Virus record (IMG/VR): IMGVR_UViG_3300037137_001027
Coordinates: 32,001 to 96,000 of that record
Source of the DNA: a virus
Strand: one strand, 5' to 3'
Length of the DNA: 64,000 bases
Shown: positions 2,173 to 63,434 of the stretch, piece by piece
Layout: each line of letters starts with the position of its first letter
Numbering within the stretch: the stretch's first letter is position 1
Program-made: the position numbers and the translations under genes
The notes under the pieces: model-generated
Databases searched by the model: none
Told to the model about the DNA's origin: nothing
Seen by the model: the letters and a program-made list of their open reading frames with translations, nothing else

Positions 2173-3510
2173 ATGAAAGATTCTAGGTCACAAAAATCCT
2201 GTAAAATGAAGAAGAAAGAGCTTCGCGCTAAACGCGCTGCGATCATCGAACGGGCCGAGAAAGATAAGACCCCACCTAAAATCTTCATTTTGTCTCAAAA
2301 AGTCCGCAATATGCCAGTAGCCATTGAAGCGGCTTTTAACGGGGAAAATTTCCCTTATAGTGAACGTAAGATTCAGAACGTTATTCAGGCAAAAAACAAA
2401 CATCCCGACCCAGCTTTCTTAAAGCGAATCTTCCTTCATTTCGCTAATTTGAAAATCGAATTTGCTGACAAGAAACCAACCTACGCTGCAACAGGTTCCG
2501 CCCCTATTGATATACTTACGAATCTGGCTCACTATCAGGGTGATGTAATTCGTGAAGTAGAAACGTGGAAACCCAGCAGTCATAATCTTCAAAAACAGGT
2601 TTATTCTTTCGCACGGCATTTGTTTGCAAAATACTACATTCCAGCTTTCATGGACTCCGCTTGGACGGGTGGCCCTGGCAGCTTGTATATGAATTGGTTC
2701 GTTCAGATTGGGCAAGGGCATAACATTCGCACAATGAATGGACTGCCTATTCCCTTGACAAAGAAAGAAGCCCATCTGACAATGGAAGCGCCGAAGGATT
2801 TCACCATCCCGCAAGCAATCCGTTATGGGCAGGTTTTGAATCTCGGTGGAGACGAGCGGTTAGTTCGCCAGCTTCTTCGTACCCGAATTGGAGTGAATTT
2901 CGAGAATAATGAATTTTGGGTGAGCGTGTTTCGTTGGCTGCTCTTACACCCCATGCTTGACGTTGCCCATTATGCTCCTGTTGTCGATTACATTTTCAAT
3001 CAGAAATTCGTTCCGTATCGCATGGATGAGAAAGGATATATGGTTTGCGCTCAACCTAATTTAAGCATGAAAGGCCGCGACCCCGAAAGCCTGCTGCGTC
3101 AAGTTGAAGCGTGGCATAAGCAATTAGGGAAGGAAAAGAAGGGCAGCTTTTCTCAGTGGGCATCTTCGGGCATTAAGGGCTTTTATAGCAAGAATGACCG
3201 CGAAAATGTTATTCGTATGATTCAGGAGATTTGCACGCAAAAAGAATTGATTAACGAAGGTCGGGTAATGAAGCATTGTGCGGGTTCCTACGCTGGTTCC
3301 TGCGCTCAAGGGCGTATCTCCATTTGGAAGTTTGAAGAAATGTCGGCGGAAGGGATAGAGAAGAGATTGACAATCGAAGTCAGCAACCGCGATAAATCTA
3401 TTACTCAGGCTCGCGGTAAGTATAATGCTATTGCAAATGCCAGCGATAAATACTGGCTTAACCAGTGGGCAAGAGAAGCGGGATTAGGTGTTTCTCGCTA
3501 TATGATATAA
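2173..3510 (+). CDS. PcfJ-like domain protein
   Basis: C-terminal ELINEGRVMKHCAGSY...RLTIEV...QARGKYN typical of PcfJ-like domain. Confidence 0.8.
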   Translation: MKDSRSQKSCKMKKKELRAKRAAIIERAEKDKTPPKIFILSQKVRNMPVAIEAAFNGENFPYSERKIQNVIQAKNKHPDPAFLKRIFLHFANLKIEFADKKPTYAATGSAPIDILTNLAHYQGDVIREVETWKPSSHNLQKQVYSFARHLFAKYYIPAFMDSAWTGGPGSLYMNWFVQIGQGHNIRTMNGLPIPLTKKEAHLTMEAPKDFTIPQAIRYGQVLNLGGDERLVRQLLRTRIGVNFENNEFWVSVFRWLLLHPMLDVAHYAPVVDYIFNQKFVPYRMDEKGYMVCAQPNLSMKGRDPESLLRQVEAWHKQLGKEKKGSFSQWASSGIKGFYSKNDRENVIRMIQEICTQKELINEGRVMKHCAGSYAGSCAQGRISIWKFEEMSAEGIEKRLTIEVSNRDKSITQARGKYNAIANASDKYWLNQWAREAGLGVSRYMI

Positions 3511-8257: not shown

Positions 8258-9242
8258 TGGCCATATCTTGGGAGAATCAAAATGAAAGCAATAGAAAAGA
8301 ACTTGCGAGAGATTCTGGATAAGATGGATGTTCCTGCCATGCGGAAGGAATTAACGGTTCCTAATCTCCGCTGGTTGCAGAGAAATCTGTTCATCCGTAA
8401 TAAGGATAAGGATGAATTTCCATCTGCTGTCCATTTTATCGCTACATTGCTGACGTTCCACGGTGAAGACCCACGGATTGGAGCAATTGATGCTCACTAG
8501 ATTGAGTCCAATGATTCCTGAAAACGGAGAAGGCATCAAACGGAATTCATTGCTTTGTATATCTGATTTCATTTTCTGGCTTAACAAGAATAAGCCCGAA
8601 GTGTTCAAAGAGGCTGTAAAAGCTGTTGACGATTGTAAAACAGCTTTTAATGACCTTGATAAGCACGTTGAACTTTGGAGAAAGTAATGAAAATTGTATC
8701 AAATTAATTCGTAGGGCTGTGGGCTGTTCCGTGCGATCATCCCCGTGATTACGCTGAAATTAGGAGCTAATATGCACCCGTTTCATCGAGACATGCTTAA
8801 CAAGATTCAGGAGAAGTGCCTGAATTACCCGACCAATCATCCTCTCAAGCGGAGTAGCAACGTCGCTTTCAGGGATTTGTTTGATCCTTATTGCGACGAA
8901 TACAAGGGTATTGATGACGATACTCGACTTGCCATTCTCCGCGAAATGTTCAAGGAAGGCATGATTACAAGCCTTCTGGTGTTTTATAAGTGTTTCATGG
9001 ACATATTTGCGGAGAAGCGGCCAGACATTGCAAACGCGGCACCTGATGCACTAGCACTACTGCTAGAACACGCAGTCGTAACTCCAATTGTACCCAAGAA
9101 GGTGTAAGATGACCCAAGAAGAAGCTGCTAAGGTTATCGCAATCCTAAAAACCGCCGATGGTGGTTGTAAGTTTTGTGCAGCAGAACTATTGAAGAAGTT
9201 TTTTAAGGATTTCCCTGAGTGGAAATCATTGGCTAAAAAGAA

Positions 9243-30873: not shown

Positions 30874-31563
30874 ATGAACATTAAGTTGTACCGTGTTGGC
30901 GGATTTGTTCGGGATGAACTCCTGGGCGTCCGCTCCAAAGACCTAGACTTCGCCGTTGAAGCTCCGTCCTACGAAGCTATGGTCGAATGGGTCCGAAGTC
31001 AAGGTGAGATTTATCTTGAATCTCCCCAATTCTGGACCGTTCGCGCCCACATCAAGGGCAAATTGCCAGCAGACTTCGTTCTCTGCCGTAAGGACGGCCA
31101 GTATTCTGACGGACGTAGACCCGATAGCGTTAGTGTCGGTACTCTATTCGATGATCTTTCGCGTCGAGACTTCACCATGAACGCTATCGCCGTGGACGAA
31201 ATCACTGGCGAATTTATCGACCCGTTCAACGGTAGAATTGATCTTGAAAACCGACTCATTCGTTGCGTCGGTAAGGCTTATGATCGTTTCTTCGAGGACT
31301 CTCTGCGTCTTCTTAGAGCTATCCGCTTCAAGATTGTTAAGGGTTTCAATTTGCACGAAGATGTTGTGGATTGTCTTCATAATGAAACGCTTGCGGAACG
31401 GCTTGCTAACGTGAGCGATGAACGCAAGCGGGAAGAATTGCACAAGTGTCTGGCAAATGATACTCCCGCCACGCTTGCTCTACTGGCCGAATTCGACCTT
31501 ATCACTAAGGCTGTTTTCGGCTCTAGGAAGCTGTGGCTCATGCCAACCATGCGTGATGCGTAA
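30874..31563 (+). CDS. cca: tRNA nucleotidyltransferase (CCA-adding/poly(A) polymerase family)
   Basis: VGGFVRD, DLDFAV, DLSRRDFTMNA, EDSLRLLRAIRF. Confidence 0.9.
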   Translation: MNIKLYRVGGFVRDELLGVRSKDLDFAVEAPSYEAMVEWVRSQGEIYLESPQFWTVRAHIKGKLPADFVLCRKDGQYSDGRRPDSVSVGTLFDDLSRRDFTMNAIAVDEITGEFIDPFNGRIDLENRLIRCVGKAYDRFFEDSLRLLRAIRFKIVKGFNLHEDVVDCLHNETLAERLANVSDERKREELHKCLANDTPATLALLAEFDLITKAVFGSRKLWLMPTMRDA

Positions 31564-40152: not shown

Positions 40153-40282
40153 TTTTGTCTAAGAATTCCCTTACCAATCCCGTTATTTGGGGTAAAGTAG
40201 GGGAGTTCTAGTTTAGGCAAGAATTGAGGTTGTACTAAACCTAGCACAAGGGAATTCACTCAAACCAAGAAAGAGGTGGACT

Positions 40283-41311
40283 ATGGACGCTGTTGAGACG
40301 ATGGGTTATGTTGGTGCGACTCCTTGGCACGGCAAGGGCAAGTCGGTTACGAATGAGGATGCCATGTACAACAGCAAGTTGTTCGTGGCGGAATGCGGTT
40401 TGAATTGGGAAGCGGAGAAGCGGCAGTTGTATCGTACCCGCGTCGGCGGTGATGGTGCATCGGTCTACGAACCCGCGTCGGCGTGGGAAGTGGTCCGCAA
40501 GAGCGATGGTCACGTTCTGGCCGACATGGTAGGCGAGCGGTATACCATTCTCCAGAACGAGGAAGCGTTCGCGTGGTTCCAGGGCTGGCTTGATGCCAAG
40601 GAAGCGGCGTTGCATACGGGCGGCGCGTTGTTCGGTGGTTCCCGCATTTGGGCGCTTGCCAAGTTGAACCGTGATCCTATGGAAATCGCTGCTGGCGATA
40701 TTGTGGAGAAGTACGTTCTTCTCTCCCATAGCCACGACGGTTCCCTTGCGGTGCGCGTCGGTTTCACCCCGATTCGCGTGGTTTGCTGGAACACGTTGAG
40801 CATGGCGAATAAGTCGGATGCTTCCAAGCTCATCCGCCTGAAGCATTCCAAGAATGTCCATCAGAACTTGGACAACTTGCGGGATGTGATGAACCTTGTC
40901 AATCAGGACTTCGAGGCGACGGCGGAACAATACCGTCTGTTGCAGCGCAAGTCCATCAATCAGAACGACTTGCGTAAGTACGTCAAGCGAGTTCTGAAGG
41001 TGGACGCGGAGGACAGCGTTATTTGGACGGGTTCGGCCCGCAGCAAGGAAATGAAGGAAGTGGTTTCCGAGCGGGAAAAGAACACTCTGGACAAAGTGAT
41101 TGGCCTTTGCGAATCGGGCAAGGGTAACAATCTACCGTCCGTGCGTGGTACTTACTGGTCCGCTTACAATGGCGTGACGGAGTATCTGAGCTACGTCAAG
41201 GGACGGAACGAAGATAACCGTCTGAACGCCTTGTGGTTCGGTACGAACGCGACGACGAACAGGGATGCGTTGTCCGTCGCGGTGGATATGGCGAGCGGCA
41301 TGGCCGTCTAA
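40283..41311 (+). CDS. DUF932 (LGT_TIGR03299-like) phage/plasmid protein
   Basis: TPWHGKG, YTILQNEEAF, SHSHDGS, TPIRVVCWNT, GTYWSAYNGVTEY. Confidence 0.9.
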   Translation: MDAVETMGYVGATPWHGKGKSVTNEDAMYNSKLFVAECGLNWEAEKRQLYRTRVGGDGASVYEPASAWEVVRKSDGHVLADMVGERYTILQNEEAFAWFQGWLDAKEAALHTGGALFGGSRIWALAKLNRDPMEIAAGDIVEKYVLLSHSHDGSLAVRVGFTPIRVVCWNTLSMANKSDASKLIRLKHSKNVHQNLDNLRDVMNLVNQDFEATAEQYRLLQRKSINQNDLRKYVKRVLKVDAEDSVIWTGSARSKEMKEVVSEREKNTLDKVIGLCESGKGNNLPSVRGTYWSAYNGVTEYLSYVKGRNEDNRLNALWFGTNATTNRDALSVAVDMASGMAV

Positions 41312-41318
41312 GGCTATA

Positions 41319-41353
41319 AGGAAGGGGGGAGAAATCCCCCCTTCCTCTTTTTT
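41319..41353 (+). terminator. intrinsic terminator
   Basis: AGGAAGGGGG/CCCCCTTCCT stem followed by T-tract. Confidence 0.85.
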
Positions 41354-41523
41354 TGTCTTATAGGTTTATAGAGGTTGTACTAAACCTATCATGGACGAAC
41401 GGCTTTTTTGTGAATGGGAGAATGGGTCTTACGTCAATTCTCTTATGGGCGGCGACCGCTTCTTAGAGGATTTGATGGAATTGGTACGGGAGTATGGTCC
41501 ACCGATCAAGGTGGAAATCCGTG

Positions 41524-41659
41524 GGGCTAGTATGGTTTCGACAGCGGCCCAAGTGACAGGCTAGACCGTGGTAGGTCGGACCCGAAAACATGCCTAAAAA
41601 CAAAGTAGGGTGTCTGTTAGCAAGTCGTCTGGACCTGGGTTCAATTCCCAGCTAGTCCA
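41524..41659 (+). ncRNA. miniature tmRNA-like RNA (tRNA-like domain, no tag region)
   Basis: GGGCTAG/CTAGTCC-A acceptor with G3-U; TATGGTTTCGAC; GGAC-CTGGG-TTCAATT-CCCAG T-arm; helix 2; only 136 nt. Confidence 0.8.
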
Positions 41660-42641
41660 ATTGAGGTTGTACTAAAGGAGGCACTATGAAACACGAAGCG
41701 AGCGACTGGATTGTGTCTCACTGGATTGGCAAGAGTGTGCGGCAGGCTTGCGGTTCCGAAGACTGCGTAGGCAGGGTTGGAACGGTGGAAGAAACCATGT
41801 GGGATGAGAATGGTGCATTGCATTGCCGCATGGTGCATAATTCTGCGCACGGTATGACTTCGGAGTGGTGGTGTCCCGCACTGTTACTGGAGATAAACTA
41901 ATGGAAAGTTTGACGGCGCTCATTGAAGAGTATCGGGACCACAAGCGTATGCACTGTATGGAAGGTTCTCGCGGTGTCGAGAATCTTTGCAAGCTGGTGC
42001 GGGCGCTGGGCTACCGCGATTCCATGAACCGTATGCAATTCCGCGACGGTTGTTTGGGCGACCTGTTGGAATTCCTTGAAGACAATTCAGGCGCAATTGA
42101 AGCTATTGTAACTTGGATTGGCGAGCGGGAAATTCCCGAATGGAAGGAAGCCATTGAATCGGAATTACCCGAACGCGGTACTTGTCCCGCTTGCGGCGAA
42201 CCGTTGCAGGATGATGTTTGCCAGAACACGGACTGCGATAGTTAAGGTTGTACTGAATTCGTTCAAGGGGGGAATGAAGATGGATATGCCTGCGTGGTCG
42301 AATTACGGGGATTACAAGTCGGACAACTACGGTGCGCATACCTTGCGTTTCGATGTTGGTCCCTATACCTTCTGGTATTCGTATAAGACTCTGGTAGCAT
42401 TTCGTGCGCCAGAGCATCCCCGCGTGGTTTGCCAGAATGTTTGGACGCGAACGACTGGCAAGCATTTGAACATGATTGACGGTGGCGCTTACAATGAGCG
42501 GGTGGACGCTGATACGTTTGCGCGGCTTGTCAAGGATTTGCTGGCCCCGCACTTTGCTAATGTAGCTTAGTGCGGTGGTTGGGAATTGAGGTTGTACTAA
42601 TTGAGTTGTTCCGACACTTTCACCAAAAGGGGAGAACACAC

Positions 42642-45185: not shown

Positions 45186-45257
45186 GCCGCCATCTTCTAG
45201 TGGCAGGATGCTAGGCTTTCAACCTGGCGACGTTGGGTTCAAATCCCACTGGCGGTA
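45186..45257 (+). tRNA. tRNA-Glu(TTC), CCA not encoded
   Basis: GCCGCCA/TGGCGGT acceptor; CTAGG-CTTTCAA-CCTGG anticodon arm; GGG-TTCAAAT-CCC T-loop; one extra base in T-stem. Confidence 0.85.
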
Positions 45258-45260
45258 CTC

Positions 45261-47371: not shown

Positions 47372-48472
47372 ATGAAGACCATCGACTATCTGCGAAGCGG
47401 GAAGACCCTGGATGACCTCCATACCGAACTTGGTATCGAAGTCAATCGCCATGATAGTTTACCCCTGGCAATCCTGAACTACTCTCAGATTGATTCGCCT
47501 AAGACTGATCCCATCGTGCGGGAATGCCGTGGGCTTGTCCTTAATTCTGAGGACTGGTCGCTGGTGGCGCGTGCCTTCCCCCGATTCTTCAATTGGGGAG
47601 AAGTAGCGGACGAAATGCCGCTGTTCAATTGGGATAACTCCGTTGCGCTGGAAAAGGTAGACGGTAGCTTGCTGCTGTTCTATCATTTCGCGGGCGAATG
47701 GCGTGTGAACACTCGCGGTAGTTTCGCGGGTATGGGCATGTTCAATACGCAATGGCAAGCGGATTATTTCAAGATGCCTATGTCCTTCACCTGGAAGGAT
47801 GGTATCTTGCGGGCGCTGGGTATTAAGGATTTGTCCGAATTGGACGCTTACCTTGACCCTGCCCTGTCCTACGCTTGCGAATTTTGCTCCCTATGGAACA
47901 AGGTCGTTCGGGAGTATAAGACGCCTTGCGTATACCAGCTTTCCGCGTTCGCTGGCGAAGAAGAAGTCGGGCCGCAATCCGTTCCGTTCTTCAAATCCGT
48001 TGGCCAGTATTCGCTCCGAACTGCTGATGAGGTAACGGATTACGTTAATTCGCAACCCGAAGCGACGTGGGAAGGTTGCGTTGTGAAGGATGATGCGCAC
48101 CGCCGATGGAAGATCAAGAACAAGCGTTATCTTGCCTATCATAAGATGAAGGGCAACGGCGATGCGCTTTATAATCCTTCCAACCTGTTGCCGTTCATCT
48201 TGGACGGGGAAGGCGACGAATTGCTTGCGGTCTATCCCGAAGTCAAGGAATGCTTCGATAGCTACAAGTCCAGGGTGAATAAGGCTTTCAGCGAATTGGA
48301 TGCGCTGTGGCAAGCCAATAAGGACATTGAAAACCAAAAGGAATTTGCCCTTTCGATTGTGGGCAAGTCGCCTTTCACTGGACTGTTGTTCAGCGCACGA
48401 AAGAACAAGACGCCGCTCAAGGAGGAATGGCGAAAGGCGGAAGATTACATCTTGAAAGGGTTGTTCAAGTAA
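47372..48472 (+). CDS. RNA ligase, T4 Rnl1 (RnlA) family
   Basis: ECRGLV, FPRFFNWGE, EKVDGS, EGCVV, KIKN; leaderless start 9 nt after motif. Confidence 0.9.
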   Translation: MKTIDYLRSGKTLDDLHTELGIEVNRHDSLPLAILNYSQIDSPKTDPIVRECRGLVLNSEDWSLVARAFPRFFNWGEVADEMPLFNWDNSVALEKVDGSLLLFYHFAGEWRVNTRGSFAGMGMFNTQWQADYFKMPMSFTWKDGILRALGIKDLSELDAYLDPALSYACEFCSLWNKVVREYKTPCVYQLSAFAGEEEVGPQSVPFFKSVGQYSLRTADEVTDYVNSQPEATWEGCVVKDDAHRRWKIKNKRYLAYHKMKGNGDALYNPSNLLPFILDGEGDELLAVYPEVKECFDSYKSRVNKAFSELDALWQANKDIENQKEFALSIVGKSPFTGLLFSARKNKTPLKEEWRKAEDYILKGLFK

Positions 48473-55913: not shown

Positions 55914-55998
55914 GGGGAAGGGAGCGCCCACTCCCTAATCATCCCTTAATTGAGGTTGTACTAAATCAGGTGTAGCAACAACCCCAACGGAGAAAGCC

Positions 55999-56184
55999 AT
56001 GACTCGGAAAGATTACGAATTGTTCGCCAAGATGCTGCGGGAAGTCCCCAGCGCGGCCAAGCGGCTCGACTTCGCGGCGGAACTGGTCAAGGTGTTCGCT
56101 GCCGATAACGAACGCTTCAACGAGGCGACGTTCCGCAATGCGGCGGATTGCAAGGTATCAAGGAAGGGGGAATACGCCAGCTAG
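55999..56184 (+). CDS. small phage protein (MTRKDY...DNERFN)
   Basis: flanked by cassette repeats. Confidence 0.8.
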   Translation: MTRKDYELFAKMLREVPSAAKRLDFAAELVKVFAADNERFNEATFRNAADCKVSRKGEYAS

Positions 56185-56271
56185 GGCAAGGGAGCGCCCA
56201 CTCCCATTATCCCCTAATTGGGGTTGTACTAAATCAGGTGTAGCGAACATCACCCCTTTCTGGAGGCTACC

Positions 56272-56478
56272 ATGATCGTCTGTGACACGCCTGACAAAAT
56301 CGAAGCGTTTCGTCTGCTGGCGCTTCGTGGCGCTCTCAAGCTCGAATGCAAGGGCTTGCGGCGCAAGGGCCAATCGGTCGCCACTCTCGTCAAGCGGGAA
56401 TTCTCCCTGCGTGGCACCAATCAGCAAGTATTGGACCAATTCGAGGCTCTTTTGCAGGAAAGGTGGATTCTTGTCTAA
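56272..56478 (+). CDS. hypothetical cassette protein
   Basis: flanked by cassette repeats. Confidence 0.8.
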   Translation: MIVCDTPDKIEAFRLLALRGALKLECKGLRRKGQSVATLVKREFSLRGTNQQVLDQFEALLQERWILV

Positions 56479-56567
56479 GGGAAACGGGGAGGGACCGCTA
56501 ACCTCCCCAATCATCCCTTAATTAAGGTTGTACTAATTGGTGTATAACCTAACCCCTGGAGGCTGTC

Positions 56568-56828
56568 ATGAAAATCGTATCTATGTTCCAGACCTGTGAC
56601 GGCAAGACGTTCACGGACAAGAACGAGGCTCAACGCCATGAAAACGAGCATGAGGCGCTCGCCAAACTTCGCAGCTTACTGAATTCCGCAATTCAGTCGG
56701 AACTGACGCGGCGCGGCAACATCGACAACATCCTCCACAGTATCCTGATGGAGAGCGCGGAAGTCCGCAACATCCTCATCACCTACAACAAGAAGATGCC
56801 AAAGGAAGCGGCAAAGGTCGCCGCATAG
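56568..56828 (+). CDS. hypothetical cassette protein
   Basis: ends KVAA. Confidence 0.8.
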   Translation: MKIVSMFQTCDGKTFTDKNEAQRHENEHEALAKLRSLLNSAIQSELTRRGNIDNILHSILMESAEVRNILITYNKKMPKEAAKVAA

Positions 56829-56916
56829 GGCAAGGGAGCGCCCACTCCCATTATCCCCTAATTGGGGTTGTACTAAATCAGGTGTAGCGAACATCACCCC
56901 TTTCTGGAGAAGTGCC

Positions 56917-57231
56917 ATGACGAATCGCATCACTGCTGCCGTTGCCCGCATGGAAAAGCAAATTGCTGACCGTATCGCCAAGGGCTTGACAACGCAAGCC
57001 AAAGTCGATGCGCTGCACGCGCATCTCGACCTCGACATTCTGGAACACGCCAAGTTTCAGGAATACAAGTCGCTGGCCTACACCGAGGGCAAACTGACCC
57101 TCGATGAATCGCAGTCGCTGTACAACTTGCTGGGCAATACCGCCAGCACGTTCAACCGCCAACCCATCGCCGTCAAGTCCGTTCTCACCTCGCTGTTCGC
57201 GGAACTGCTCAAGATGCGCATGGCAAGCTAA
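56917..57231 (+). CDS. hypothetical cassette protein
   Basis: flanked by cassette repeats. Confidence 0.8.
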   Translation: MTNRITAAVARMEKQIADRIAKGLTTQAKVDALHAHLDLDILEHAKFQEYKSLAYTEGKLTLDESQSLYNLLGNTASTFNRQPIAVKSVLTSLFAELLKMRMAS

Positions 57232-57328
57232 GGGGAAGGGCAGGGGAACGCCAACCCTGCCCCTTTTATCCTCTAATTGAGGTTGTACTAATCTAGGTGT
57301 AGCGAGAACTCCTTACTGGAGAAACGCG

Positions 57329-57586
57329 ATGATCGCTGAATACGCGCTGGACAATCTGCTGGTTGGCCAAAAGGACCGCATCCTTGGCCTCTGCAATGCG
57401 GAGAAGTATGAGGAGGCGCTCTTGCTGCTCGACTTCACGGAGGAGATGTGGGCGGCTTGTCAGTACGCTTACAAAACGCGGGAAATACGCGACCGCATCC
57501 GCCGCGACCTAAACGAAAACGTCTGGAATGCGGAACACTGGAAACAGAAAGAGAAGTGGCAAAAGTTGCTCGTTACGGTGCCGTAA
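57329..57586 (+). CDS. hypothetical cassette protein
   Basis: flanked by cassette repeats. Confidence 0.75.
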   Translation: MIAEYALDNLLVGQKDRILGLCNAEKYEEALLLLDFTEEMWAACQYAYKTREIRDRIRRDLNENVWNAEHWKQKEKWQKLLVTVP

Positions 57587-57941
57587 AGGGAAGGGAGCGC
57601 CCACTCCCTAATTAACCTCTAATTGAGGTTGTACTAATTACAGTGTAGCGACAACCCCAACTGGAGAAGTGCCATGATGAATCATCTCTACGGTGAGAAG
57701 CTGGTTGACGGCAAGACGGTCACGCTGGATCACGCGGTACAGGAATTCACCGTCGTCATTCGTTCGTGCAGCGGGATTCACCCGCAAACGCTGAAAGACC
57801 TCATCGAGCGCAAGTTCGAGGTCGTCAGCATCAAGGCGGGCGAAAGCAAAGAGTACGTCAGCTAAAGGGAGCGCCCACTCCCATTATACCCTAATTGGGG
57901 TTGTACTAATTGGAGTATAACCCTAACCCCTGGAGGCAATC

Positions 57942-58199
57942 ATGGCGACTCGATTCATCATCAAGACGGACAATCCCGAAGGCATTCCCAGCACTTGGGA
58001 AATGAGCGATTTCGAGATGAAGCACGGCTTGAACGTCAACGAGGTGGACAAGCTGTATGTGACGTTCAAGGTGAAGAAGCGCCGCAAGATCAAACGGCTG
58101 CGCATCAACGTGAAAGTGCATCCTTGCGAGTTATGCGGTTCGCACGCATACGCAAGCGGCAGCGTCGGCAGCAAGGAATTCGACAAGGAACTTTACTAA
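57942..58199 (+). CDS. hypothetical cassette protein
   Basis: flanked by cassette repeats. Confidence 0.75.
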   Translation: MATRFIIKTDNPEGIPSTWEMSDFEMKHGLNVNEVDKLYVTFKVKKRRKIKRLRINVKVHPCELCGSHAYASGSVGSKEFDKELY

Positions 58200-58287
58200 G
58201 GGGAGGGCAGGGGAATGCAAACCCTGCCAATCATCCTCTAATTAAGGTTGTACTAATTGTGGTATAACCCTAACACTGGAGGCGGTC

Positions 58288-58476
58288 ATGAAGGTTTGCG
58301 AGCGATGCGGCTGCGAGATTGCCACGAAGGACGGGGACAACCTTTGCCGCGATTGCGACGAAGGCAAGAAGAAGCGGGACAAGCGGAATGCGTCCCGCAA
58401 AGCCCGCGAGGATGCGCTCCGCTCCATTGGTCTGGTCAAAGTCAAGGGCGCTCTTGGTGGAACGTATTGGGAATAA
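58288..58476 (+). CDS. zinc-finger cassette protein
   Basis: CERC...CRDC. Confidence 0.75.
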   Translation: MKVCERCGCEIATKDGDNLCRDCDEGKKKRDKRNASRKAREDALRSIGLVKVKGALGGTYWE

Positions 58477-58570
58477 GGGTAGGGGAGGACCGCAAACTCC
58501 CTAATTAACCTCTAATTGAGGTTGTACTAAATCAGGTGTAGCGAACATCACCCCTTTCTGGAGAAGTGCC

Positions 58571-58846
58571 ATGAAGCTGCAAAACGTCACCGTCGTCATC
58601 CTGGCCCGCGTCGAGAACAACGGCCTCAAGGTGGCCAGCGTCATCGACAATCCCGAAGTGCCGTCCAGCGGCGGCAAGCCCGTCATCGGCCCGCTGATGC
58701 GGCGGCTCATGTCGGTCAAGGAGGTCGTCGCGCGGACGGGACTGAGCAAGGGCAAGGCCGCTGATGCGCGGCGGCTCAACCCAATGACCTACCTGGCCGA
58801 CTTCGAGGGGCAATCGCCACTGGCGTTGTCGCTCCAGGCCGCGTAA
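58571..58846 (+). CDS. hypothetical cassette protein
   Basis: ends LQAA. Confidence 0.75.
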   Translation: MKLQNVTVVILARVENNGLKVASVIDNPEVPSSGGKPVIGPLMRRLMSVKEVVARTGLSKGKAADARRLNPMTYLADFEGQSPLALSLQAA

Positions 58847-59922
58847 CAATAAGGCGGTCGCTGCGGCAAGGTCGATCAGTCCACCCGTGGGACCGCAGGG
58901 CAGGGGGGGAACCCCTGCCTTTTTTGTTATCATCCCGTAATTAAGGTTGTACTAATTTGTGTGTAGCCAACAACCCCTTACGGAGAACTGCGATGCGACA
59001 CTACATCAGTCGGCAGAAGGCGCAGAGCTACGGCGGATTCATCTACTACCAGTGCAAGCGCGGCAAGTACATGCTGGTGAACTACCACGGCGAAACGATG
59101 TGGATGGGATACGTCCAGCCCCACGGCTTCTACGTCGTTCCCTTCGACCACGCCAGGGGCCAGAGCGAACAACTCAAAGACATGGTAGCATAACGTTAGG
59201 GGTGAGGCAGGGGACCGCAACCCTGCCTTTTTTCAATCATCCTCTAATTGAGGTTGTACTAATCTAGGTGTAGCGAACATCACCCCTTTCTGGAGCAATC
59301 ATGCTGACCAACACTTGCAAGCCCCGCTTTGCTACGCTGAATCTCACGATGGAACAGCGGTTGCAGCGCTGTGCCACGCCCATGACCAAGTTCACCCTGT
59401 TCAACGCACTAACGGGCCGCGCCATCAAGGGCGGCAGCACCATCAGCATCAACGGGATTCCGTGCATTCTCTCCAGCATTCAGAGAGAGGACGGAAGCGG
59501 CAGCAGCTTCAACCTCATCGTCTACGGCCCCGACAACCAGCCATACAAATGCTACTGCCGCACAACGGACTAAGGGGAAGGGAGCGCCCACTCCCATTTA
59601 CAAGATCATTGCGGTTGTACTAAATAGAGTAAGGAGGACAATCATGCACCAGACAACCGCAATCCGCCGCAACGACAAGGGCTTTATCATCAAGCTCGGT
59701 CCCGCGCCCGAACGCGGCAACCTGTTCCGCATTGCGGATCAGATCGGTATGGCCGCTGCTACTGACAAGCGCCAGCATCGCCGCCGTACCAAGGCCGCAC
59801 GCAAGGCCCGCCGCTGGAAAGCGGAGTAACAACAAGGGAGCGCCCACTCCCTAATGAGCCTCTAATTGAGGTTGTACTGATCGAGGTGTAGGACGAGTCA
59901 ACCCCTTTCAAGGAGCCATCGC

Positions 59923-60168
59923 ATGAACGCTCTGGTACAGGTCGGCGTCGGTGAGGTCATCGCGTCCCGCAAGCTGACTGGTGGCGGCATCCTGGTGCAG
60001 CGGCTTTGCTGCTCTTGCAAGCACGCTTTCTGGTCGGCCTACAACGAACACAAGAGCGCGTGTGCCGATTGCGACCCGCCCGCCAAGCGGCCCGAATCGC
60101 GGGGTATCGGTCGCAACCTCGACCGCAAGGCGAGCGACCGCCAATATCACGGTAGCAACGTGGAGTAA
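59923..60168 (+). CDS. zinc-ribbon cassette protein
   Basis: CCSC...CADC. Confidence 0.7.
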   Translation: MNALVQVGVGEVIASRKLTGGGILVQRLCCSCKHAFWSAYNEHKSACADCDPPAKRPESRGIGRNLDRKASDRQYHGSNVE

Positions 60169-60275
60169 CGCGGGGAAGGGCAGGGACCACAACCCTGCCT
60201 TTTCCTAATGAACCTCTAATTGAGGTTGTACTAATCAGGGTGTAGGACGAGTCAACCCTTAACCTGGAGACGACG

Positions 60276-60500
60276 ATGCACGATCACGGTTACACTCCCC
60301 CGCTCCCGTCCACCCGCGACGAACTGATCCGCGACACGAAGGCCGCGCTGAAGATGCTGAAGATGCTCCGCGACTTCGGCGTTGACCTCCGCGACAAGAA
60401 GATCATGGCGATCAAGCACCTCCGCACGCAGACGGGCCTCGGCCTCCGCGAAGCGAAGGAAGCCGTCGAGTTCGGCATGGAGTTGCTGGACGCAGCGTAA
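60276..60500 (+). CDS. ribosomal L7/L12 C-terminal-like small protein
   Basis: KKIMAIKHLRTQTGLGLREAKEAVE. Confidence 0.75.
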   Translation: MHDHGYTPPLPSTRDELIRDTKAALKMLKMLRDFGVDLRDKKIMAIKHLRTQTGLGLREAKEAVEFGMELLDAA

Positions 60501-60612
60501 CACGTTAGGGGAGGGGCAGGGGAACGCCACCCTGCCCTTTTTATCATTACAGTATCATTGAGGTTGTACTAATTGGGGTGTAGGACGAGTCAACCCCTTG
60601 CGGAGAACTGCG

Positions 60613-60927
60613 ATGCATACCACCGACTCCATCCGCGACCTCCTCACCCGCAACCCCAAGGCCGTTTACAGGGCGCTTGTCGTCCTGTTTGAGCGGCAGA
60701 CGGACGATGAGAAGGAGAGCGAGGAAACCAAGCACGACAACGGGCGCGGCTTCAATTACCGCGATGCCAAGTTCGGTTCCGACTTGGCGCAGAAGTGCAT
60801 CCGCCCCGACCCGCGCTACCCTTCCCCGCTCTCCGTCAATCAGCTTGCTGCGGCCCGCCGTATGCTGCACAAGTACGCTGGCCAGCTTGCCCGCATTGCC
60901 AACGGGCAGGAAACGGTCGAGGTATGA
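60613..60927 (+). CDS. phage protein (HDNGRGFN...LSxxQ...KYAGQL)
   Basis: motif familiar from uncharacterised phage proteins; terminator at 60935-60959. Confidence 0.8.
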   Translation: MHTTDSIRDLLTRNPKAVYRALVVLFERQTDDEKESEETKHDNGRGFNYRDAKFGSDLAQKCIRPDPRYPSPLSVNQLAAARRMLHKYAGQLARIANGQETVEV

Positions 60928-60973
60928 CCAAACGACCCGCCCGCAAGGGCGGGTTTTTTATTACCAATTTAGT

Positions 60974-60991
60974 TCCAGTACAACCTCATTT
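60974..60991 (-). promoter_or_regulatory. single inverted copy of the promoter motif
   Basis: reverse complement reads AAATGAGGTTGTACTGGA. Confidence 0.7.
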
Positions 60992-61277
60992 AATGCCAAT
61001 TTATACTGTACAAACTAGCGCCATGCCTGGAATGCGATTAAATCGCTTTTAAGCCACTCTAACCCTAAAACCGACCCGACATAGCCTTGACCCATTTGCG
61101 CTCGTCTCAAGCGATCCTGGCGCGATTACGGGCCATTTGAACCTCGAACCTCGACCGACTTTTGCGCCGTTCCATTCGCCTATGGTACGCTGGTATATGG
61201 CACCGTGCTAATGGTACTCTAATTGAGGTTGTACTAAATCAGGTGTAGCGAAGATCACCCCTTTCTGGAGTACGACG

Positions 61278-61493
61278 ATGCCGCGTTGCGAAGATTACCC
61301 CTGCTGTGGCCATGAGGCGGGTTGCTGCCCGAACTACGACCGCACTGGCAAGCAGACCGACATGGTTTGCACCTGCGGCGCTCGCCTGCCGATCACGGCG
61401 CGCTACTCCATCTGCGAGACGTGCCTCCGTGACGACGACGACGACGGCCCCGACTATCGGGGCGACGACTGGCAGGAGGTGGACGAATACTAG
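61278..61493 (+). CDS. Cys-rich cassette protein (CEDYPCCGH)
   Basis: flanked by cassette repeats. Confidence 0.8.
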   Translation: MPRCEDYPCCGHEAGCCPNYDRTGKQTDMVCTCGARLPITARYSICETCLRDDDDDGPDYRGDDWQEVDEY

Positions 61494-61598
61494 GGGAAGG
61501 GCAGGGGAACGCCACCCTGCCCTTTTTTGTTATTAACCTCTAATTGAGGTTGTACTAAATCAGGTGTAGCGAACATCACCCCTTTCTGGAGTACGACG

Positions 61599-61955
61599 AT
61601 GGGAACCCGCCTCTACCCGAACACCACCGACCGCGCGGCCCTGGAAGTTCTCGCTGGCGTTCCCGCTGGCACACACGCCCGCATGGACGAAATGGCCAAG
61701 CGGCACGCCGAGGCGAAGGTTGACCCCTTCGACCAGGAGGCGGGTTACGCGCAGTGGAAGGAGCGCAACGACGACGGGCCGATTGGCGACCTCGACGCCT
61801 TCCTCACCTTCGGCTGGGGCAAGTTCCGCCCCGTGGACGGGATCGGGGAGGACTGCGCGGGCCATGAGGACAACCTCGACCGCGCGGCTCGCCTGTTGCG
61901 GGCGAACGGGATCGGTGCGAACGTGGCAATGACGGGGGGATTGCACTGGGGCTAG
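61599..61955 (+). CDS. hypothetical cassette protein
   Basis: flanked by cassette repeats. Confidence 0.8.
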   Translation: MGTRLYPNTTDRAALEVLAGVPAGTHARMDEMAKRHAEAKVDPFDQEAGYAQWKERNDDGPIGDLDAFLTFGWGKFRPVDGIGEDCAGHEDNLDRAARLLRANGIGANVAMTGGLHWG

Positions 61956-62053
61956 GGGAAGGGCAGGGGAACGCCAACCCTGCCTAATTAACCTCTAATT
62001 GAGGTTGTACTAATTACAGTGTAGGACGGATCACCCCTTACGGAGTCTGACCC

Positions 62054-62281
62054 ATGTTCGCACTGTACGTTGACAACGGCACTGGTGAACTCAGCCGCGC
62101 AGTCTTCACGCTGGAAGAGATGCGCAACTACAGTGGACCTCGGCCCACTTACCTCCGCATTGGCGAGAGCGGGGAGCGCGTTTCGTGGGATACGTTCAAG
62201 GCCATTTGCGCGACGTGTCGGCCCGACGACGCGGACGACGACCCCGACAACCTCTTCGTCTATCGCAGCGACGACAACTAG
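62054..62281 (+). CDS. hypothetical cassette protein
   Basis: flanked by cassette repeats. Confidence 0.75.
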   Translation: MFALYVDNGTGELSRAVFTLEEMRNYSGPRPTYLRIGESGERVSWDTFKAICATCRPDDADDDPDNLFVYRSDDN

Positions 62282-62371
62282 GGGAAGGGAGCGCCCACTC
62301 CCTAATTAACCTCTAATTGAGGTTGTACTAATTGGGGTGTAGGACGAGTCAACCCCTTACGGAGTACGATC

Positions 62372-62827
62372 ATGGAAGCCGCACTGAAGCTGACCGATGC
62401 CAAGCCCGTCCGCAAGCCCCGCACGGCCCGCAAGGTCAAGCCCGTCGCCGCCGCGATGAAGCCCGATCACCTCCAAGCCTACGCCACCGTGGGCGTCATG
62501 TTCATGGCCGTTCTGTCCGCGCTGCTGAACGGCTACGCGAACGCGGCGAGCGCCGAGGTTGCGTGGGCAGGCTGGGGTATGGGCTTGGCCGTTCCCGTTA
62601 TCATCTTGCTCTTGGGCAAGGTTGCGGGGTTGCTCTACAAGCGCGGGCAGAAGCGCGCTGCCCTTGCTACTGCCAGCGCTGGCATTGGCTTGCTCGCGCT
62701 GTCCGTTTGGCACGTTAGCCTTTCCATCGCCGCCTTGACGGGAAGCCCGATCATGCTGGCAATGCCAATGGCGGTTGCAATCGACTGCGGTTTCGTCTGC
62801 TGCGAGGTAGCGGCCTTGCTCGACTAG
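62372..62827 (+). CDS. multi-TM membrane cassette protein
   Basis: four hydrophobic segments. Confidence 0.8.
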   Translation: MEAALKLTDAKPVRKPRTARKVKPVAAAMKPDHLQAYATVGVMFMAVLSALLNGYANAASAEVAWAGWGMGLAVPVIILLLGKVAGLLYKRGQKRAALATASAGIGLLALSVWHVSLSIAALTGSPIMLAMPMAVAIDCGFVCCEVAALLD

Positions 62828-63434
62828 GGCAAGGCAAGGGCAGGGGAACGCCAACCCTGCCCTTTTTGCTAATGATCCTCTAATTGAGGTTGTACTAAAT
62901 CAGGTGAGGACGAGTCACCCCTTTCTGGAGACGAACGATGAACTACGCTTACTTGCGGCTCGCGGCTTGGATGAAGATGATGCAAGGGGGCGAGCGGCGG
63001 CGGTGGGCGCGGGTCTGCAACTACCTTGACGCGAGGATGATGCGCTCTTGACCAAGGGCAGGGGAACGCCAACCCTGCCTAATTAACCTCTAATTGAGGT
63101 TGTACTGAATGGGGTAGGAGGATACCCCTGGGCATCGCCCATGCCCATTGAATTGTTATTAAGGTTGTACTAACATAATTAACATATGATTAATTAATTT
63201 CATTTTCTGTTTAAAAAAGTAACATCAGGGTGCCTACCGTGGACGCCATACCAGTGAGTTCTTTAAAAAAGTCAATTTCAAAATTAGCCGCCAGGGATTT
63301 TTCAAAATTCCACACATATCTTAAAAAAACTAATTTTTCCATTTTCCAAAAAATATACCAATCCAAAAAATTACCATTAGTAAAGTTTTGAAAAAATCTA
63401 CAATGGATTTTTCAAAACTTTACTATATTAAGGT

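Follow-up and report, generated by a model that had tools for sequence, protein, structure and literature searches.

Results

A predicted mini-tmRNA gene on a viral contig

The DNA analysed here, referred to as the window, is a stretch of 64,000 nucleotides that corresponds to bases 32001-96000 of the 159.5-kb IMG/VR viral contig IMGVR_UViG_3300037137_001027 (labelled G000). On its plus strand, at 41524-41659, lies a gene predicted to encode a small RNA derived from transfer-messenger RNA (tmRNA), with a complete alanine-type tRNA-like domain but without pseudoknots 2-4 (PK2-4), helix 5 (H5) or a tag reading frame. We refer to it as the mini-tmRNA. The gene and its parts are the following:

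41524-41659, plus strand: mini-tmRNA gene, 136 nt through the discriminator A; 50.4 bits to the Rfam tmRNA model RF00023 and 147 bits to the family covariance model R1; covariation among relatives
41524-41530, plus strand: 5' strand of the acceptor stem, GGGCUAG; 7 of 7 pairs form, with G3 (41526) opposite U70 (41656)
41531-41542, plus strand: D-loop analogue TATGGTTTCGAC (RNA form UAUGGUUUCGAC), the SmpB-binding side of the tRNA-like domain; without a D stem
41542-41561, plus strand: 5' strand of helix 2, CAG-CGGC, internal loop, U-GACAGGC; its partner is 41612-41631
41564-41577, plus strand: hairpin A, GACC-GUGGUA-GGUC, at the position of pseudoknot 1 (PK1); 4 of 4 stem pairs covary and the loop GUGGU is fixed
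41580-41611, plus strand: helix B, ACCC/GGGU around a 24-nt A-rich loop; a covarying helix
41588-41597, plus strand: resume-codon-like context, with A(-4) at 41588, U(-1) at 41591, GCC at 41592-41594 and UAA at 41595-41597
41612-41631, plus strand: 3' strand of helix 2, GUCUGUU-A, GCAA, GU-CG-U-CUG; covariation in the family alignment
41635-41651, plus strand: T arm CUGGG-UUCAAUU-CCCAG, preceded by GGAC; part of the RF00023 match, 3 of 5 pairs covary
41652-41659, plus strand: 3' strand of the acceptor stem, CUAGUCC (41652-41658), and discriminator A41659; AUU follows, not CCA

The initial annotation of this locus had described an acceptor stem GGGCTAG/CTAGTCC with a G3:U70 pair and a discriminator A, a stemless replacement of the D arm, the sequence GGAC followed by a perfect T arm, a helix 2 around some 50 nt with two small hairpins, and a 3' end at which CCA is not encoded. 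All of these parts were recovered at the same positions, the discriminator A directly preceding ATT.

RF00023, which has a gathering threshold of 47 bits, matched 41524-41662 over model positions 1-374 (E 6.3e-17), with an internal deletion in which 33 nt stand for 256 model positions; the D-loop analogue aligned with the Rfam consensus ucuGGaUUCGAC. It had been anticipated that tmRNA models would hit both ends of the RNA around such a deletion. The Rfam model did, but ARAGORN did not call the mini-tmRNA, and its sole call in the window was a tRNA-Glu at 45186-45258. Folded as a single sequence the RNA is unremarkable (-45 kcal/mol, z = -1.4), so the case for a structured RNA rests on the Rfam match together with the relatives described below.

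Among the features that define a tmRNA, the locus has a D-loop analogue GGNUUCGAC without a D stem, a T arm GGUUCRANUCC and a long helix 2 of 15 pairs linking the tRNA-like domain to the remainder. PK1-PK4 and helix 5 are missing, and helix 2 encloses only 50 nt, which fold into a hairpin of 14 nt and a 24-nt loop closed by a 4-bp helix. Identification as a tRNA-Ala was rejected, there being no anticodon arm with a 7-nt loop and no D stem, and both ARAGORN and the Rfam tRNA model were silent. The GCC triplet was also rejected as an anticodon: its loop is 19-24 nt long and the triplet is followed by a pyrimidine. The proposal that this is a tmRNA-derived mini-RNA with an intact alanine tRNA-like domain is thus borne out by the Rfam match, by the identity elements for alanyl-tRNA synthetase (AlaRS) and by covariation within the family.

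Relatives of the mini-tmRNA in other phage genomes

Through the neighbouring DUF932 gene, relatives were found on four jumbo-phage contigs, of 341, 129, 390 and 373 kb (other genomes and loci are cited by G and L numbers, respectively). In three of these four contigs a mini-tmRNA is found just downstream of the DUF932 gene, scoring 48-50 bits against RF00023 (L002 and L005 both fall in this range, the lowest score being 48.1). Further members were gathered by pattern scans and with the family covariance model R1. One of them (L080; 55.7 bits) belongs to G006, a complete 355.8-kb genome with terminal repeats, and another lies at 2250-2383, again downstream of DUF932, in LR756511.1 (50.4 bits), an unannotated 595-kb GenBank entry for an "uncultured phage". 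In total we obtained 13 distinct sequences of 133-137 nt, drawn from four other IMG/VR jumbo-phage contigs, LR756511.1 and eight metagenome contigs.

A blastn search with the locus against 50,697 GenBank phage records gave no match; the copy in LR756511.1 was reached solely through its neighbouring DUF932 protein, and blastn with that copy found only itself. The first pattern applied to metagenomes gave 0 matches, and a mis-specified viral pattern returned mostly chance matches, though the G006 member surfaced among them. A viral scan with TTCGACAG...SCGTGGTAGS yielded 31 new loci, 0 of which matched R1. With the pattern used, no member of the family was found in the genomes representing 185,579 species of bacteria and archaea.

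Covariation supports the structure. RNAalifold predicted 35 pairs from 11 sequences, 23 of them with compensatory changes. In an alignment of 12 members, which was fitted to the model and therefore favours the structure, 97.6% of cells were paired and compensatory changes occurred at 26 of the 35 pairs; 0 of 500 shuffled alignments reached the observed covariation, and sliding the pairing partners lowered the paired cells to 27-47%. The initial annotation had looked to phage homologues for covariation, and they supply it. Within helix 2, 11 of the 15 pairs carry compensatory changes and helix 2b is wholly rewritten from member to member (GACAGGC/GUCUGUU, AAUUAGU/GCUAAUU, AAGUGCC/GGCGCUU). The stem of hairpin A occurs as GUCC/GGAC, GAGC/GCUC or GGGC/GCCC, and helix B as ACGC/GCGU, ACGG/CCGU, GUAAGG/CCUUAC, CAAAG/CUUUG or UGUAG/CUACA around a loop of 19-24 nt. 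A loop-loop pseudoknot between GGUA of hairpin A and UGCC was considered and rejected: both sides are fixed in 10 members, but the pairing is weakened in L068 and absent in LR756511.1.

A decayed copy had been named at the outset as one outcome that would undo the identification, and the locus could in principle be either a tmRNA pseudogene or an attachment-site remnant left by integration into ssrA. Several relatives are labelled "provirus" in IMG/VR, and phages that integrate at ssrA carry tmRNA fragments (PMC9004378). Against this, both ends of the RNA are present and paired, 26 pairs vary in a compensatory manner while the interior loops stay invariant, G006 is a complete genome with terminal repeats, and the survey of species genomes found no cellular copy for its pattern. 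The mini-tmRNA is conserved in the same place downstream of DUF932, and the full-length tmRNAs of two relatives sit elsewhere in their genomes, not at this locus. Covariation and conservation therefore rule out a pseudogene or remnant, an explanation that we leave with almost no probability.

Conservation in the tRNA-like domain follows its recognition elements. The acceptor pairs G1-C72, G2-C71 and G3:U70 are invariant in all 12 aligned members while pairs 4-7 covary; G3:U70 is also present in LR756511.1, and the discriminator A73 is invariant in 13 of 13 members. In the D-loop analogue, GGUUUCGACAG is invariant among 11 members. The sequences suggest that selection has acted on recognition by AlaRS, and the fixation of its identity elements beside covarying pairs points to charging and ribosome entry, as opposed to a passive sponge.

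A conserved resume-codon-like context without a conserved tag

The interior also retains a conserved motif. In 11 members A65, T68 (U68 in the RNA), G69 and C70 are invariant and C71 is at least 90% conserved; A(-4) and a GCN codon, either GCC (as in the window) or GCG, are found in 13 of 13. Hairpin A ends 14 nt 5' of GCC. In Escherichia coli the resume codon begins at G90, 12 nt past the end of PK1, and A86, four bases 5' of it, is nearly universally conserved and sets the frame, whereas the pseudoknots are replaceable (PMC2481249). By cryo-electron microscopy A86 stacks on Tyr55 of SmpB (PMC8363625). By analogy, A(-4)-N2-U-GCC in an A-rich strand looks like the context that SmpB grips to place the resume codon, and the family as a whole looks, from its sequences, like a tmRNA whose 5' half has been retained through the resume codon but whose tag frame, helix 5 and PK2-4 are gone. 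The statement that the tag-reading domain had been deleted is therefore correct for these last elements but goes too far for the hairpin at the PK1 position, A(-4) and GCC/GCG, which remain.

The window copy reads GCC-UAA (41592-41597), that is, one further alanine and then a stop. Counting LR756511.1 (GCC AAC UGA), the GCN frame closes in 8 of 13 members, encoding ASTQVA*, ASIQVA*, ASIK*, AYIKVAC*, ASIKVAC*, AFTKSYTCYK*, AN* and A* (the asterisk marks the stop), and it stays open through the T arm in the other five (L061, L069, L072, L068 and L080). Among the 12 aligned members a stop precedes the 3' strand of helix 2 in only 7 in the GCC frame, compared with 8 and 9 in the other two frames, and indels of +1 and -1 within the loop shift the frame. 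In L061 and L069 a UAG has become UAC with a compensating change across helix B, so what has been kept is the structure and not the stop codon.

It could nevertheless be argued that the RNA is a true minimal tmRNA with a conserved short tag, such as the ASTQVA or ASIQVA of relatives, since the GCC frame does give closed short peptides in eight members. The five open frames, the closure rate no higher than in other frames, the indels inside the frame and the structure-preserving loss of UAG in L061 and L069 all speak against a selected peptide; the comparison of frame closure over 12 members gave the conserved-tag hypothesis no support, and we consider it very improbable. What the family conserves, as far as its sequences tell, is the structure and the resume-like motif, not any tag frame. 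The earlier observation that there is no tag open reading frame (ORF) thus holds for the family, in which no frame is conserved, but not literally for the window copy, with its GCC-UAA.

Partner functions and full-length tmRNAs

No SmpB gene was found in G000, G001, G003, G004 or G006, and the mini-tmRNA would therefore have to use SmpB of the host. An RF-1 domain (PF00472) was found only in G001 (79542-79853, locus L086; a 234-aa open frame, 85 bits), so there is no conserved release-factor partner.

The 3' CCA would have to be added, and the tRNA-Glu of the phage is likewise encoded without it. The following gene of the window is relevant here:

30874-31563, plus strand: class II nucleotidyltransferase of the CCA-adding / poly(A) polymerase family, 229 aa; PF01743, 89.6 bits

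The best NCBIfam match of this protein is CCA tRNA nucleotidyltransferase, at 138 bits under a cut-off of 290 bits, and a second class II nucleotidyltransferase of 546 aa is encoded outside the window. The assertion that the phage carries a CCA enzyme stands at the level of the family, with two such proteins, but not at that of the specific function, as both fall below every equivalog cut-off. Given these two enzymes and the CCA-less tRNA-Glu, CCA addition to the mini-tmRNA is plausible, with the 229-aa protein as a candidate. A T4 Rnl1-type RNA ligase (PF09511) is encoded at 47372-48472 on the plus strand, near the tRNA-Glu and the mini-tmRNA; the proximity of ligase, nucleotidyltransferase and these RNA genes suggests an RNA-repair toolkit.

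In G004 (98% complete) and G006 (complete), the mini form is the sole tmRNA above the Rfam gathering score. Two other genomes carry both kinds. LR756511.1 has a 353-nt full-length tmRNA with the tag ANPEFAMAA at 341278-341632 (L108:1503-1855, minus strand), and G001 one of 357 nt with the tag ATPYEYALAA at 8556-8914 (L039:1503-1859, minus strand); the two are homologous to each other, and neither has an encoded CCA. The first 18 kb of the G001 contig lack the phage promoter motif described below, and the genes flanking its tmRNA are absent from G000, G003 and G004, features that had suggested a host flank before the homologue in LR756511.1 was found. Because that homologue lies inside LR756511.1, the full-length tmRNA of G001 is probably a gene of the phage lineage.

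These gene contents bear on a rival explanation, in which the mini-tmRNA is an inhibitor or decoy that binds host SmpB through its tRNA-like domain and contacts, by its A(-4) motif, the face of SmpB on which the resume context is held; it may in addition act as a dead-end substrate in stalled ribosomes, such that in either case host trans-translation and tagging are shut down during infection. An RNA like that of Mycobacterium phage DS6A, which consists of the tRNA-like domain (TLD) only, strongly inhibited E. coli tmRNA whether or not it could be charged, according to the work as cited in PMC4131195 and PMC11915505. The lack of a phage SmpB to offset titration, the lack of a conserved stop after GCC (missing in five members) and a short interior that may be unable to thread the mRNA channel would all suit an inhibitor. 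A passive sponge, however, needs no alanine identity, yet G3:U70 and A73 are fixed while neighbouring pairs covary. Moreover, a blocker would also disable the canonical-tag tmRNA that LR756511.1 and G001 themselves carry, unless the two RNAs are made at different times, and this co-occurrence argues against a plain blocker. We regard inhibition as a possible, if rather unlikely, function.

Transcription context and neighbouring genes

Around the mini-tmRNA the window contains these further features:

40283-41311, plus strand: DUF932 gene, the syntenic upstream neighbour; PF06067, 4e-48
41319-41355, plus strand: intrinsic-terminator-like hairpin and T run at the end of the DUF932 unit; 12-bp stem with 8 G-C pairs, then CTTTTTTTGT
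41367-41384, plus strand: upstream copy of a promoter-like motif (..GAGGTTGTACTAAA), 140 nt 5' of the mini-tmRNA
41391-41564, plus strand: 57-codon ORF or leader, reaching 41 nt into the mini-tmRNA gene
41659-41676, plus strand: downstream motif copy AATTGAGGTTGTACTAAA, beginning on the discriminator base; it serves the next gene, with ATG at 41686

The DUF932 gene precedes the mini-tmRNA in L002, L005, L060 and LR756511.1. The 18-nt motif AATTGAGGTTGTACTAAA contains the core TTGTACTAAA, of which the window has 19 copies, all on the plus strand, against 0.3 expected. The motif sites span 5171-62899 and lie directly upstream of genes (for example at 40230, 41375, 41667 and 44032), and relatives have the variants TTGTACCAAA and GCTGTACC. 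A phage-specific RNA polymerase or sigma factor probably uses the motif as its promoter. At 55956-62930 a leader of about 30 nt, tcaggtgtagcgaacatcacccctttctgg, nearly the same each time, comes after seven of the motif copies; the arrangement resembles a 5' region that has been repeated, or a family of paralogous genes.

In L060 and L061 a gap of 9-14 nt separates the end of the motif from the start of the RNA, and in L060 the motif directly follows a terminator, so that in these two loci the mini-tmRNA has a predicted promoter of its own. A motif abutting the 3' end of the RNA is seen likewise in L002, L005, L055, L060 and L072. The initial annotation had rightly placed the 5' end within the ORF at 41391-41564 and the 3' end against the promoter-like motif. 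The ORF upstream of the RNA in L005, however, runs into it in another reading frame, and L002 lacks an ORF there; the overlap is therefore incidental and not conserved coding.

The RNA lies in the gap between genes, on their coding strand, and in places lacks a terminator of its own, which raises the question of whether it is a tRNA-like element with some other role. It might, for example, mark a polycistronic transcript for processing by RNase P, RNase Z or the CCA enzyme, or lure host nucleases or defence sensors directed at tRNA or tmRNA. The investment of the genome in RNA repair, with its ligase and class II nucleotidyltransferases, would fit such a role. A processing handle, on the other hand, has no need of helix 2, of a hairpin A with a fixed loop or of a resume-like motif, all of which are conserved, and the motif directly upstream in L060 and L061 indicates a dedicated promoter. 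We judge a role of this kind improbable.

Other reduced tmRNA-like RNAs

The searches also returned RNAs outside the family. Among the species genomes a single, different tmRNA-like RNA of 152 nt was found (L094:2225-2376, minus strand, in CAYVOF010000050.1), with CCA encoded and a score of 56 bits to R1, on a short contig binned to a metagenome-assembled genome of Saccharibacteria, a bacterium of the Candidate Phyla Radiation; it could be a reduced cellular tmRNA or lie on a phage contig. Smaller viral contigs carry unrelated mini-tmRNA families of 130-150 nt, several with CCA encoded (L011:1623-1759, L022, L027, L028:10689-10823, L033, L019:1308-1437, L070:344-488 and L036:655-804). The frames of L011 and L028 end at an identical position through different stops (...TANTAGLTE* and ...TANTVGMFK*), and from this shared closure some mini forms of other families may keep a tag.

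The 373-kb relative holds a second, different RNA of 127 nt (L044:1501-1627, corresponding to G004:24758-24884), which scores 29 bits to the tmRNA model and has a G3:U70 acceptor and a T arm, without the UUCGAC motif. Its neighbours are tRNA-like genes in which the anticodon loop or the T loop is cut short (L044:2247-2311 and 2952-3016). In G004, ARAGORN called a 94-nt "tRNA-???" with a 2-base anticodon (L040:2279-2372) some 640 nt 3' of the mini-tmRNA.

Discussion

The reading that we favour, to which we would give even chances, is that the mini-tmRNA, charged with alanine and reliant on SmpB from the host, enters stalled ribosomes but attaches no degron. It would be transcribed from the phage's own type of promoter, trimmed and then provided with a CCA end, after which host AlaRS would charge it with alanine and host SmpB and EF-Tu would bind the charged form. 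It would then compete with full-size tmRNA for ribosomes stalled on broken mRNAs. The alanine would be passed to the nascent chain, followed by at most a few more residues (for the window copy, Ala-Ala and then UAA), and the stalled ribosome would thereby be engaged while its product goes without a proteolysis tag.

Three observations favour such active engagement: the fixed set of AlaRS identity elements, the fixed resume context of the SmpB type and the coexistence with full-length phage tmRNA. There is also precedent for its components, in the 25 bacterial tmRNA database entries with two-residue Ala-Ala tags and in the tmRNAs without a coding sequence (CDS) of organelles and of phage DS6A (PMC11915505).

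Several points weigh against this reading. Only about 23 nt separate GCC from the 3' strand of helix 2, while PK1 and the tip of H5 are some 130 Å apart in the E. coli structure (PMC8363625); by this comparison, the threading of so short a loop by the ribosome is doubtful. Position -5 is mostly a purine in the family, in contrast to the pyrimidine favoured in full-size tmRNA (PMC8363625). The inhibition of E. coli tmRNA by a DS6A-type RNA, as cited in the two papers above, fits a blocker as well as it does a competitor. Finally, a stop in the GCC frame is not conserved and the loop has frame-shifting indels, so termination at a tag stop by the canonical pathway cannot serve the family in general.

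A stronger form of the proposal is that the mini-tmRNA completes rescue alone, with host SmpB placing GCC in the A site and release following after one to a few residues, without a degron. This we think unlikely, with perhaps one chance in four.

The closest known published case is the "TLD only", or CDS-less, tmRNA of Mycobacterium phage DS6A (Hudson, Lau & Williams 2014, PMC4131195; PMC11915505), which we located at JN698994 28478-28557, where it scores 43.2 bits to RF00023 with the interior deleted. Both RNAs are phage-borne and tmRNA-derived, with a G3:U70 acceptor, a D-loop analogue and a T arm, and both have a tRNA-like domain without a tag CDS. The family described here does not, however, share the size of about 65-80 nt, with little beyond the domain, that characterises the DS6A type. 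The DS6A RNA has 80 nt, a 20-nt interior and a stub of helix 2, whereas in the 133-137-nt family helix 2 is complete and covaries, and an interior of 50 nt includes a hairpin in the place of PK1 and a conserved resume context. Outside the tRNA-like domain there is no detectable sequence relationship between the two.

Jakobid mitochondria and some plastids also contain CDS-less tmRNAs (PMC3590771; PMC11915505). These, too, have a tRNA-like domain without a tag frame and a SmpB thought to be encoded elsewhere, but they are about 65-100 nt long with no resume-like motif reported, whereas the mini family occurs in jumbo phages, sometimes beside a full-length tmRNA. With the 5' half of bacterial SsrA RNA the family shares the tRNA-like domain, helix 2, a structured element, an A-rich spacer, A(-4) and GCN, and the window copy, with its GCC-UAA, would yield precisely the Ala-Ala of the bacterial tmRNAs with two-residue tags. 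Unlike bacterial SsrA, it has a 14-nt hairpin in place of PK1, no H5 or PK2-4, an unconserved stop, no encoded CCA and no ARAGORN call. Engineered E. coli tmRNAs, for their part, show that pseudoknots and tag can be replaced and that A86 sets the choice of frame (refs 11 and 25, as cited in PMC2481249). The mini family likewise retains the A(-4)/resume part; the engineered constructs, however, exchange pseudoknots for RNA of similar length, whereas here the whole 3' ring is lost.

Full-length phage tmRNAs have been described in the mycobacteriophage Bxz1 group, Bacillus phage G and huge phages (Al-Shayeb et al. 2020, PMC7162821). Those found here resemble the mini form in being phage-encoded without a SmpB gene, and both kinds occur in LR756511.1 and G001, but they are 353-359 nt long and have canonical hydrophobic tags. 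The co-occurrence of the two forms suggests a division of work between them. In the full-text literature on mini, minimal, truncated or phage tmRNA we found no description of a form such as the one reported here. Annotation of the tmRNA-like RNAs that phages encode is almost lacking; ARAGORN, which was used for a large survey of huge phages (PMC7162821), misses the mini-tmRNA also in the GenBank genome LR756511.1.

Looking forward, the family amounts to a natural deletion series in which the 5' half of tmRNA is kept through the resume codon and the rest discarded. It makes testable how much of tmRNA is needed for entry into stalled ribosomes and handover to a new template, and whether phages boost, redirect or block host ribosome rescue in infection; as a natural minimal tmRNA for such tests, we expect it to be of moderate to high value to specialists. 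Were the mini-tmRNA able to complete rescue alone, it would lower the minimum size at which a tmRNA is known to work and would provide jumbo phages with a second rescue channel, a "rescue without degradation", beside or instead of full-length tmRNA.

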